Assembly (NCBI GenBank): GCA_039932235.1
Contig: JBDTQJ010000003.1
Span: 1-39,996, forward strand
DNA: 39,996 nucleotides
Source: Chloroflexota bacterium
Lineage (GTDB): Bacteria; Chloroflexota; Limnocylindria; QHBO01
Direction of reading: 5' to 3'
The translations under genes were made by a program, and so were the position numbers. The notes beneath the pieces are model-generated. The model saw nothing but the letters and a program-made list of their open reading frames with translations. It made no database searches and was not told the origin of the DNA. Shown here in pieces: positions 21,755-24,134 of the stretch (the stretch's first letter is position 1; each line of letters begins with the position of its first letter).

Positions 21755-22598
21755 CCACCGCGCCGCCGACGAGGCTCAGCCAGGTCAGGGGCTCGTGGAG
21801 CAGCACCGCGGAGCTGATGACCCCGATGATCGGTACCAGCAGGGCGAAGGCAGCGGCCCGCGAGGCCGAGATGCGGCCCACCCCGACGTGCAGCAGCACG
21901 AACGCGACGACGGTGCCGAACACGGCCAGGTAGGCGATCCCCACCCACGCCTCGAGGGGCGCCGCGAGCAGGCGCGGACCGCCGCCCTCGAGGATCGCTG
22001 CCGGGATCAGGACCAGGGTCCCGATGACCGTCCCGTAGAGCGTGGCGCTCACCGGGTCGAAGCGGCGGCTTGCGACCCGACCGAGCACCGAGTAGATGCC
22101 CCAGCAGATGGCGCCAGCGATGAACATCAGGTCGCCGAGGAGGCGGGTGGGGGTGGACTCGGCCCCGGGACCAACCACCAGTACCAGTCCGGTGGCGGCG
22201 ACGGCCAGGCCGGCCGCCCCGAAGCGGCCCAGCGGCTCGCGCAGCATGCGCCAGGCGACGATGGCGGTGAACACCGGCGCCAGGCCCGGCACGATGATTG
22301 CGCCGTCGGTCGCCGGGGCGAGCGTCAACCCGGTCAGGAAGAGCCAGTTGTAGCCCGCAATCGCCGTCAGCCCCAGGCCGATCACCAGCGGCAGGTCGCT
22401 GGCGCGCAGCGGGCTCAGGCGGCGACCGGTCAGGCGCGCCCAGGCGGCGAGCAGGAGGCTGGCGGCGGCGAAGCGGAGGGTCGCGACCATGAACGGCGGG
22501 ACATGGTCCACCGCCACCGCCCCGGCGACCCAGGTGCCGCCGAAGCAGATGGCCATCCCGCTCAGCGCCGCGTAGGCGACGCGCTCGTCATCCGTCAC
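21681..22598 (-). CDS. DMT/EamA-family transporter
   Basis: About ten TMs in two repeats; LRF, LREPL and LHEPL. Confidence 0.9.
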   Translation of the reverse strand: MTDDERVAYAALSGMAICFGGTWVAGAVAVDHVPPFMVATLRFAAASLLLAAWARLTGRRLSPLRASDLPLVIGLGLTAIAGYNWLFLTGLTLAPATDGAIIVPGLAPVFTAIVAWRMLREPLGRFGAAGLAVAATGLVLVVGPGAESTPTRLLGDLMFIAGAICWGIYSVLGRVASRRFDPVSATLYGTVIGTLVLIPAAILEGGGPRLLAAPLEAWVGIAYLAVFGTVVAFVLLHVGVGRISASRAAAFALLVPIIGVISSAVLLHEPLTWLSLVGGAVVILGLWLIQRRGAVRASPTAPTAD

Positions 22599-22936
22599 TT
22601 GGGTGGCATCCCGCGAACGTGGGCAAGGGCACGGGCGAGCCACTCGTCGAGGCGTGCGCGATCCGAGCGCACTTCCTCGGGCAGCACCATGAAGCCGCGC
22701 ATCGGCCGGCCGGCCATCGGTTCGAACGGGGTTCCGCCGATGTCACCCAACTCGGCGATGTCCGGCGCGGAGAGCCGGACGATCCAGCGGTCCTCGTGGA
22801 GGCTGGTGACGAGGTGGCCGCCGGCGAAGCAGGCGGGATAGCCGAACATCTTGCGTCGGGCGGCGTCGGGCGCACCCGCCATGAGGTCGTCGGTGACCGC
22901 CGTGAACTGCGCGACCAGCTCTGGGGGCGAGGGCAT
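22595..22936 (-). CDS. TfoX/Sxy N-terminal-domain protein
   Basis: RKMFGYPACF and FEPMAGRPMRGF...LDEW; stop overlaps the DMT start. Confidence 0.82.
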   Translation of the reverse strand: MPSPPELVAQFTAVTDDLMAGAPDAARRKMFGYPACFAGGHLVTSLHEDRWIVRLSAPDIAELGDIGGTPFEPMAGRPMRGFMVLPEEVRSDRARLDEWLARALAHVRGMPPK

Positions 22937-22981
22937 GCGATCCGTGCTCCGTATACCGATGCGTGGACGTGGCGGCTCGTA

Positions 22982-23043
22982 GTATCCACCGTTGGGGATA
23001 GAGCGTGGATAAGCCACCCATCGGCCCGCAAAGTCGGGGATAA
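22982..23043. promoter_or_regulatory. Cluster of four DnaA-box-like 9-mers
   Basis: GTATCCACC (22982), reverse CTATCCCCA (22993), reverse TTATCCACG (23004), reverse TTATCCCCG (23035); 1-2 mismatches to TTATCCACA. Confidence 0.6.
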
Positions 23044-23049
23044 ACCCTC

Positions 23050-23079
23050 TTGTGGTGCCGGGCCGCGGGATCCTATTCT
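23050..23079 (+). promoter_or_regulatory. Sigma70-type promoter TTGTGG-N18-TATTCT
   Basis: Predicted start near 23086 coincides with the 5' end of the structured RNA. Confidence 0.6.
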
Positions 23080-23085
23080 GTGATC

Positions 23086-23190
23086 GTCCCGAAGGGGCAG
23101 CGAATACCGGATCACGAGATCGCATCAAGCGTTCCGGTACCGATTCAGTGGCTTCGGCCACGGGGTTGGACGCGGTCCCTTCGGGATTTT
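23086..23190 (+). ncRNA. Unassigned structured RNA, three-way junction (~105 nt)
   Basis: P1 23086-23102/23171-23187; P2 TACCGGA/TCCGGTA; P3 capped by C(UUCG)G; ends in TTTT. Confidence 0.68.
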
Positions 23191-23222
23191 CATGCTGTCC
23201 GTGGAACGCGTGGGGCACTGCC

Positions 23223-24134
23223 GTGAGATCGCCGATCGAGCCATCCGAGTCGTCGGGCGGGACCTGGACGGTGGAAGTCGAGCCCGCCGTCCTGCTGCCG
23301 TCCCGCCCTGTGGCCTGCTTCATCCGCTACCGCCCTGACAGCAGCTTCGAGGCACGCGAGGTGCGTGCCGTCCTGCGCGCGGTCGAGACGTTCCAGTACC
23401 GCCGGAGCCAGCAGACCGGGGAGACGACCACCACGGTCACCCATACCGGTCATGACGAGGTCGTGCGCGCCGAGGCGCAGCTCGCCGGGCCGATGGCCTT
23501 TCGCGCCGGCGAGGAGGTCGCCTGGGAGACGGGCTGGGAGCTGGAGCACCTCGCGCCGCCGACGTTCGAGGGGTCCGACGTGCTGCGCTGCGACTGGACG
23601 CTCGAAATCTCGGTGGACCGCGCCTTGAGGATGGACGAGCGGTGCGTGGTGCCGCTGAAGGTGGCACAGCCCACGGCGCTCCTGCGCGCCGGTGTGGTGG
23701 CCACCGGGCAGTACGGCCTCTTCGAGGATGCGCCGGTCAACATCGATGCCAATCCGGCCCAGATCCGGCTCGATCCGGTGCCGCTCTCCGTCGCGCATCC
23801 GTTCAGCGGAGAGCTCCGTCTCCAGACGCCGGAGGCGATCCAGGTCCAGGAGGTGCGGCTCGAGCTGCGGGTCCGCACCGAGTGCACCGAGCGTGGCGGT
23901 CTGACCGATGAGCTGCTCATCGCCAGTGGGCGGCTCGACACGCCGACCGGCACCTTCGGCGGTCCGTTCGCCGAGCATCCGTTCAGCGCGCCGGCGCCCG
24001 GGGTGTGGACGCCATCGGTCGACCTGCGCCACGGAACCGCGCGGGCGCAGTTCCACGTCATCCTTGCGCGGGCCTGGGCGCCCGACGTTCACTACGTCCG
24101 CGACGTGGCGCTCGCCTCGTCCGTCGATCTCTGA
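23223..24134 (+). CDS. Arrestin-fold / SpoOM-like protein with two beta-sandwich repeats
   Basis: Repeat 1 AREVRAVL...PPTFEGS...WTLEISVDRAL.MD; repeat 2 QEVRLEL...TPSV...FHVILARAWAPD. Start uncertain. Confidence 0.6.
   Translation: MRSPIEPSESSGGTWTVEVEPAVLLPSRPVACFIRYRPDSSFEAREVRAVLRAVETFQYRRSQQTGETTTTVTHTGHDEVVRAEAQLAGPMAFRAGEEVAWETGWELEHLAPPTFEGSDVLRCDWTLEISVDRALRMDERCVVPLKVAQPTALLRAGVVATGQYGLFEDAPVNIDANPAQIRLDPVPLSVAHPFSGELRLQTPEAIQVQEVRLELRVRTECTERGGLTDELLIASGRLDTPTGTFGGPFAEHPFSAPAPGVWTPSVDLRHGTARAQFHVILARAWAPDVHYVRDVALASSVDL

Follow-up and report, generated by a model that had tools for sequence, protein, structure and literature searches.

Sibling small RNAs behind promoters with DnaA-type boxes in a family of Candidatus Limnocylindria (Chloroflexota)

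The window analysed here, that is, the whole stretch of 39,996 nucleotides (nt) from the forward strand of contig JBDTQJ010000003.1 (positions 1 to 39,996) of the Chloroflexota bacterium assembly GCA_039932235.1, carries on its plus strand, at positions 23086 to 23190, an element that an earlier description made from the letters without database searches (the sequence-only reading) had presented as an unassigned three-way-junction RNA with its own promoter and switchable ends. The element belongs to a small RNA (sRNA) family which is real and undescribed. Its members typically combine a promoter with DnaA-type boxes at fixed positions, a long stem pairing the two ends of the RNA (the clamp), a short structured motif at the tips of hairpins and a U-rich tail. 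With moderate confidence, we read the window copy as a stand-alone member of a lineage-wide family of sibling sRNAs which share a DnaA-box promoter cassette and whose tip motif acts in trans. Comparison of the copies confirms a predicted discrete folded RNA of ~105 nt, encoded from 23086 to about 23194 on the plus strand, and makes a DnaA input to the sRNA family probable.

The element has been found to be unassigned as originally stated, with no match at the gathering score upon a scan of the whole window against Rfam 15, none for 12 loci with other family members, and, at E values of up to 10, only a chance match to mir-2366 in the region 22850 to 23400 (17.2 bits against a threshold of 68). 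Equally, a literature search, with subscription journals and supplements outside its scope, returned no account of this RNA and none of an sRNA family driven by DnaA. Homologues are, on the other hand, abundant in the lineage. The source genome (2.19 megabases (Mb), 234 contigs, 85% complete) harbours four paralogues, namely the window copy and copies on contigs C110, C13 and C50. BLAST with the region 23040 to 23230 matched every other family genome searched (24 of 24) and 0 of 16 genomes from the other families of the class, and R1, a covariance model trained on 22 orthologous copies, matches all 151 of 151 genomes of the same Candidatus Limnocylindria family, which span 24 genera and mostly carry 3-6 copies each; 10 of these 151 genomes are unpublished, and no claim depends on those ten alone. 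In a class-wide sample, R1 matched 50/50 genomes of the own family and gave weak matches in 10/44, 1/49, 0/6 and 0/1 genomes of the other four families; when weak matches were read individually, 8 of 9 were diverged cassettes and one (locus L062) was noise. Such diverged cassettes occur in two sister families, where clamp, motif and tail are kept and some members enclose other cargo. A composite pattern joining box and clamp, GGAYAA-N38-48-CCCGRAGGGGC, is present in 49/50 and 42/44 genomes of two families and in 1/49, 1/6 and 0/1 genomes elsewhere, with 2 matches in total for the reversed control pattern.

The promoter was delineated from 31 distinct copies anchored at the first G, a set that omits 2 of the 32 elements, situated at contig ends, and includes the C50 copy in addition. 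Upstream of the start, their consensus reads tGgGGAt-n4-GTgGAtaA-n22-TcGGGGAtAA-n5-TTGc-n18-TAT.CT-n6-G. Assigned by conservation, the core elements (TTGnnn, an 18-nt spacer, TATnCT and a G start) resemble a sigma-70 promoter, and their persistence across the copies bears out the claim that the RNA has a promoter of its own. Further upstream, 31 of 31 copies carry at -82 or -81 the word TGTGGAYAA, the exact complement of the DnaA box TTRTCCACA, with no more than one mismatch, and a second site at -51 (or -50), likewise found in 31/31, usually reads CGGGGATAA and else CGTGGATAA or GGTGGACAA, the latter variants being shifted towards the DnaA-box consensus. A distal box at -93, starting 11 base pairs (bp) ahead of the start of the -82 box, is weaker than the boxes at -82 and -51. 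At least two matches to the DnaA box TTATCCACA/TTGTCCACA accompany the promoter and are conserved among relatives, the -51 and -93 boxes being phased with the -82 box while the inter-box spacers are unconserved. A further inverted box at -104 is doubtful because it is seen in the closest relatives only.

The identity of the box word can be assessed at the dnaA locus. Genome-wide (2.19 Mb), 184 occurrences of the 9-mer were counted when up to one mismatch was allowed, or 0.084 per kilobase (kb), and clusters with at least 2 sites within 120 bp number 10 in the genome, including the dnaA-adjacent region and two sRNA promoters. Among the dnaA loci from relatives, of which 26 of 30 were used and 4 cut-off loci were dropped, 60 sites fall within the 15,399 nt just downstream of dnaA (3.90 per kb), and none of the 26/26 loci lacks a site there, compared to 1 site in 35,010 nt of the dnaA gene and 3 in 39,000 nt of the upstream region. 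The dnaA-adjacent variants, at a density of ~46 times background, are the same as those at the sRNA promoters, namely CGTGGATAA, GGTGGACAA and TGTGGAGAA. Its enrichment beside dnaA marks the 9-mer as the origin-type DnaA box of this lineage. The link to DnaA that the sequence-only reading had proposed has thereby gained in substance, with three boxes at fixed positions in 31/31 copies and the same 9-mer at the dnaA-adjacent origin region of 26/26 genomes.

That the most conserved site, the one at -51 (CGGGGATAA), lies two mismatches off the box consensus in most copies and that similar boxes occur in other geometries at other promoters of the genome would also suit a real sRNA family whose sites bind another lineage-specific factor, or which only titrate DnaA in a datA-like manner without promoter control. 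We consider such an alternative unlikely in view of the -82 site, which in 31/31 copies is the complement of TTRTCCACA or one mismatch away from it, of the accumulation of the same word and its variants beside dnaA, and of the variation at -51, which goes towards the DnaA consensus.

Boxes of the TGTGGAYAA type were also seen over or just 5' of other TAnnnT -10 elements in the source genome (G000), at C5:15832-15894, C95:5806-5866 and C15:5383-5414, with further such box-bearing promoters at C141:4485-4505, C8:10577 and C54:5832. Three phased boxes are present at the C5 site, and at the C95 site the distance from box to -10 hexamer is 39 nt, as in the sRNA promoters. These boxed promoters elsewhere in the genome suggest a wider DnaA regulon.

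The RNA itself lies in a 150-bp intergenic gap of lower G+C, with a TfoX_N gene on one side and the arrestin-like open reading frame (ORF) on the other side. The minimum free energy (MFE) of the plus strand of 23086 to 23190 is -57.5 kcal/mol, compared to a mean of -36.1 (standard deviation 3.2) for 200 dinucleotide shuffles (z -6.72; 0/200 as good). The three-way junction is closed by a stem of 13+3 bp (23086 to 23102 with 23171 to 23187), and the closing stem, the UACCGGA/UCCGGUA stem, the UUCG-capped stem and the UUUU after the third stem are all as had been described at the outset. The reverse strand is likewise stable (-46.9, z -5.06), and as it also folds well, the strand is not assignable from stability alone; the plus strand is indicated by the conserved G-U pairs of the clamp, the conserved upstream promoter and the conserved U-rich tail. 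In the closing stem, the column pair 12/104 is G-U in 27/27 rows and the pair 11/105 in 21/27, pairs that would read C-A on the opposite strand. The U-rich tail following the clamp helix is kept in 31 copies in any downstream context, with a tract that is short or interrupted. Beyond the U tract (23188 to 23205, and at the same place in other copies), a TTTCGTTGTGCCCGG-like continuation is kept whichever gene follows, in which TTGTCC looks like one half of a DnaA box in inverted orientation. A small ORF as the conserved entity was ruled out, as there is no internal AUG and hairpin 2 shows indels and paired changes.

Structural conservation was counted on 28 orthologous copies aligned to the covariance model, which correspond to 27 distinct rows. 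In this alignment, which is fitted to the model and biased in favour of pairing, 97.3% of cells are paired compared to 93.7% in shuffles (0/500 shuffles reach the observed value), and pairing falls to 32-52% when partners are slid by 1-3 columns. Double-sided compensatory changes occur in 9 pairs, all of them in hairpin 2, where they comprise 9/9 of its pairs, with 0/500 shuffles reaching the score. Within the family, variation in the clamp, hairpin 1 and the motif helix is either absent or confined to G-U changes, as is the case for the 5' clamp arm at 23086 to 23102 throughout the 27 distinct rows. At class level, clamp pairing is kept through replacement of A-U by G-C (GGAGG with CCUCC) and of U-A by G-C at the second pair, and at locus L058 a paired 1-nt deletion in the clamp leaves the long helix in place.

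These counts bear on the suggestion that the ends of the RNA are switchable. Both arms of the closing stem are self-complementary by direct reading of the sequence, and two conformations are structurally possible; this part of the suggestion stands, whereas none of the comparisons made favours an actual switch. The clamp arms are too invariant within the family for the conformers to be distinguished there, and the two-sided clamp changes at class level speak for the long clamp and against separate hairpins at the two ends, although the alternative fold may occur transiently. As the 3' arm sits in a helix before the U tract in both conformers, no on/off logic results from their exchange. That each arm is an inverted repeat (GTCCC-N3-GGGRC), the first located exactly at the predicted start and both invariant in the family, could alternatively mean that the pieces act as DNA, with the palindromic arms as operators of a dimeric regulator and the fold as a by-product. 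This explanation is highly improbable: the conserved G-U pairs would function on one strand only, the pairing of hairpin 2 is kept through two-sided changes in 9/9 pairs, and in every architecture the U-rich tail and the tip motif keep their place with respect to the RNA structure.

The range of architectures was established from 32 elements in the first 36 loci. The three-way junction of the window type, with 100-106 nt, accounts for 22 of the 32; five consist of the clamp with one hairpin (62-65 nt), three of the clamp with two motif hairpins (98-102 nt), and two show a 136-nt form. Common to all are the 5' arm GUCCCGAAGGGGC, the 3' arm G(U/C)(U/C)CCUUCGGGA and a tail like cAUUUCGUUG. Whatever the architecture, and in three families of the class, hairpin tips carry the motif G[A/C]GAU-N-R-C-AUCAA (GAGAU-NNC-AUCAA), with 1-3 motifs per RNA. 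In every fold, the motif forms a GAU/AUC helix of 3 bp that ends in a triloop and rests on a GA/AA internal loop. Two tandem cassettes with three DnaA-type boxes each were observed at locus L058 (genome G191, minus strand ~1400-1960), the second encoding an RNA of ~186 nt in which the same clamp encloses two motif hairpins as well as additional stems. A mobile element was ruled out, since in different genera the orthologous copy keeps the same two flanking genes, TfoX_N and AAA_33. In three near-complete genomes of 2.1-2.2 Mb (G071:C1, G103:C4 and G012:C2), all copies on the dnaA-bearing contig lie ~220-560 kb from dnaA, none of them is found in the terminus half and most are oriented with replication; as synteny is common to these three genomes, they are not independent cases.

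The sequence-only reading had also considered a cis-regulatory leader for the arrestin-like gene. A homologue of this gene is found directly downstream in 13 of 28 orthologous loci (window included). Its start, estimated from where the tblastn alignments begin, is ~13-38 nt past the clamp, too near for a promoter of its own, and this arrangement, together with the self-complementarity of both clamp arms, would be compatible with a 5' leader or attenuator in which clamp versus two hairpins sets read-through. As a main role, this proposal finds no support. The other 15 of the 28 loci are without the gene, three same-genus relatives keep the RNA without it, and at least 10 of the 28 loci have a convergent gene next to the RNA (AAA_33 in 7, PMSR in 2 and DUF2652 in 1, with 2 loci without a call), as assessed by Pfam for 12 of the 15 loci without the arrestin-like gene and on 94 candidate frames, third-position G+C being uninformative in DNA of 70% G+C. 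Moreover, unrelated genes follow the paralogues, which have promoter, clamp and motif in common with the window copy: a convergent UPRTase gene or else, at +38 to +166, a ROK, serA or sugar-transferase gene. A helix also precedes the U tract in both conformers. For the C13 copy, the apparent end of a convergent frame lies 12 nt past the clamp, and Pfam named none of the six frames there. Downstream context is consequently variable, with no constant co-directional gene class. As the RNA is kept with or without the arrestin-like gene, a stand-alone sRNA and not an obligate leader is indicated, and we assign only a small probability to the cis-acting alternative. The arrestin-like gene, for which no room for an own promoter is left, is probably fed by read-through, and is probably an optional passenger reached from the RNA promoter.

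The coordinates of the cassette and its neighbours are collected in Table 1. In the window, an AAA_33 kinase gene follows the arrestin-like gene. On the 5' side, the TfoX_N gene is syntenic with the RNA in many loci. Its start lies 57 bp from the distal box (region 22937 to 23050), so near that its promoter must overlap the box cluster; the TfoX_N gene may therefore be co-regulated with the RNA via the box cluster.

Table 1. Features of the sRNA locus and its flanking genes (positions in the window)
Feature	Position	Strand	Remark
Divergent TfoX_N-domain gene	22595..22936	-	Pfam TfoX_N E 7.4e-12; shares the box-bearing intergenic region
Weak inverted DnaA-like box GGTGGATAC	22982..22990	-	2 mismatches to TGTGGAYAA; at -104
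Distal DnaA-like box at -93, TGGGGATAG	22993..23001	+	Consensus tGgGGAt, 31 copies
DnaA box at -82, CGTGGATAA	23004..23012	+	TGTGGAYAA, 0-1 mismatch
Promoter-proximal DnaA-like box at -51, CGGGGATAA	23035..23043	+	Abuts the -35 region
-35 hexamer TTGTGG	23050..23055	+	TTG conserved across copies, 18-nt spacer; uncalled by consensus scanner
-10 hexamer TATTCT	23074..23079	+	TAT.CT at -12 to -7, consensus of 31 copies
Predicted transcript start and 5' clamp arm (GUCCCGAAGGGGC-A-GCG)	23086..23102	+	MFE fold; arm of all architectures
Hairpin 1	23105..23139	+	7-bp stem UACCGGA/UCCGGUA, irregular apical region; carries the family motif
Family motif GAGAUCGCAUCAA	23116..23128	+	Within hairpin 1
Hairpin 2, C(UUCG)G-capped G-U-rich stem	23140..23169	+	Sequence variable, structure kept
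3' clamp arm (CGC-G-GUCCCUUCGGGAU)	23171..23187	+	Pairs with 23086 to 23102; 99.1% of helix-1 cells paired
U-rich tail, presumed intrinsic termination tract	23188..23196	+	Consensus C.TTtc..tg after the clamp, 31 copies
Arrestin-like ORF	23223..24134	+	Weak Arrestin_N, 23.1 bits against a cut-off of 24.9; start codon 23223 inferred

How the shared cassette could work as a stand-alone sRNA system can be outlined as follows. DnaA on the high-affinity -82 box would nucleate binding at the weaker -93 and -51 boxes, and DnaA at the box next to the -35 hexamer would activate RNA polymerase, whereby the sibling RNAs would report DnaA or replication status. The clamp with the U tract would terminate transcription and shield both RNA ends, while read-through of the terminator would also feed the arrestin-like gene here and at 12 of the 27 other orthologous loci. 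The conserved apical hairpin would be the working part, acting in trans; the motif would more likely bind a protein than pair with mRNA, because it is structured and its central triloop is variable among paralogues. A more far-reaching proposal, which we regard as possible but doubtful, is that the family constitutes a post-transcriptional arm of DnaA, in which the sibling RNAs would be expressed with DnaA-ATP and their GA-GAU-NNC-AUC-AA hairpins would capture a protein and thus couple replication to physiology.

Action by base pairing was examined in the source genome and at the dnaA gene. The complement of the 13-nt motif retrieves the sRNA genes themselves and chance-level matches only, the best of which (on C24) is same-sense and inside a coding region, and among 12 TTGATGYRA sites none is a start-codon target. 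UUGAUG at the dnaA start codon, complementary to the loop sequence CAUCAA, is found in 21/24 family genomes and 0/6 sister-family genomes, and the dnaA start region (L063-L086) reads GGAGAcggcuGUUGAUGGAUGCGAAG in most family genomes. The dnaA mRNA as a target was set aside as unsupported, the duplex energy of its start region ranking only 486-1459 of 2900 candidate start regions in the source genome. Likewise rejected was an Hfq-dependent base-pairing sRNA, with Hfq (PF17209) detected in 0/31 genomes and no complementary site above chance; pairing independent of Hfq is possible.

Several points weigh against a DnaA-driven, trans-acting sRNA family as favoured here. Concerning the promoter, the departure of the -51 box from the consensus has been mentioned, a simple consensus scanner called neither promoter nor terminator at the locus, and DnaA binding is deduced from sequence, a factor with a similar site being possible. 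In two loci, L054 (genome G202) and L059 (genome G248), the latter two representing the 136-nt three-motif member, a TAGAGT promoter without recognisable DnaA boxes is found, which means that control by the boxes is not universal in the wider family. Concerning the RNA, the U tract of the window copy is short and interrupted, helices 1-3 are invariant in the family and as such uninformative for or against RNA pairing there, and the bias of the counting alignment in favour of pairing has to be taken into account. The single run X1, labelled as RNA-seq and containing 0.05 of the sampled words, is probably DNA and gives no transcript evidence. A contig of 172 nt from X1 over 23084 to 23251 begins 2 nt before the predicted start and extends through the clamp, which is too weak and was unused as evidence, and a more distant contig over 23073 to 23142 was equally unused as evidence either way. 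Concerning function, no loop-complementary site above chance and no target was found in the source genome, and the outcome for the dnaA mRNA points in the same direction.

Several sibling sRNAs under one regulator are a familiar arrangement, with Qrr1-5 and LuxO, the csRNAs and CiaR, and PrrF1/2 and Fur as examples. Like those, the present family has several paralogues per genome, promoters in which the sites of a regulator keep constant positions, a loop element common to the copies and a putative terminator. It differs from them by its DnaA-type boxes, the 13-bp end clamp and the structured loop module, by Hfq not being found in 31 genomes and by the lack of a sequence or Rfam match. Bacterial Y RNAs (YrlA/Yrn1 with Rsr/Ro60) offer another comparison, being ~100 nt in length with a long end-pairing stem, a variable interior and several copies. 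Their terminal 5'/3' stem has its counterpart in the 13+3 bp clamp of all architectures. Assignment to the Y RNAs was, however, ruled out, as Ro60/TROVE (PF05731) was found in 0/31 genomes, 21 of them at least 90% complete, with the Deinococcus radiodurans control detected, and as no Rfam match was obtained. The CsrB/RsmZ sponges, in turn, share with the family one short motif at hairpin tips, 1-3 times per RNA, and several RNAs per genome; a CsrA/RsmA sponge was rejected, as the motif GAGAU-NNC-AUCAA is not GGA and CsrA (PF02599) was found in only 1/31 genomes.

DnaA is a known transcription factor for protein genes. Clusters of DnaA boxes outside oriC and the DnaA-activated sda promoter in Bacillus subtilis have been described (PMC3245932; PMC8203912). 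The situation is similar in that box clusters lie away from the origin, where a small transcription unit begins just downstream, and have been proposed to link gene expression to replication status; it is different in that the product there is the small protein Sda or neighbouring operons, whereas here it is an RNA family. A 2021 review devoted to the role of DnaA in transcription (PMC8203912), when searched for terms, gave 0 occurrences of sRNA, small RNA and non-coding RNA. A small RNA tied to replication and cell-cycle control is EcpR1 of Sinorhizobium meliloti, which is reported to be stress-induced and to act on cell-cycle genes (PMC4414408). In the present family, the link would be reversed, as the sRNA promoter carries DnaA sites and the dnaA mRNA is unsupported as a pairing partner.

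The cassette is sharply defined by its fixed boxes, clamp and loop motif and is thus directly testable in vitro and in heterologous reporters, though the organism is uncultured. If the favoured reading is true, the main recognisable sRNA family of this class stands behind DnaA boxes, which would tie post-transcriptional control to chromosome replication in a new way, in an uncultured, abundant lineage of soil and fresh water without the usual sRNA partner proteins.
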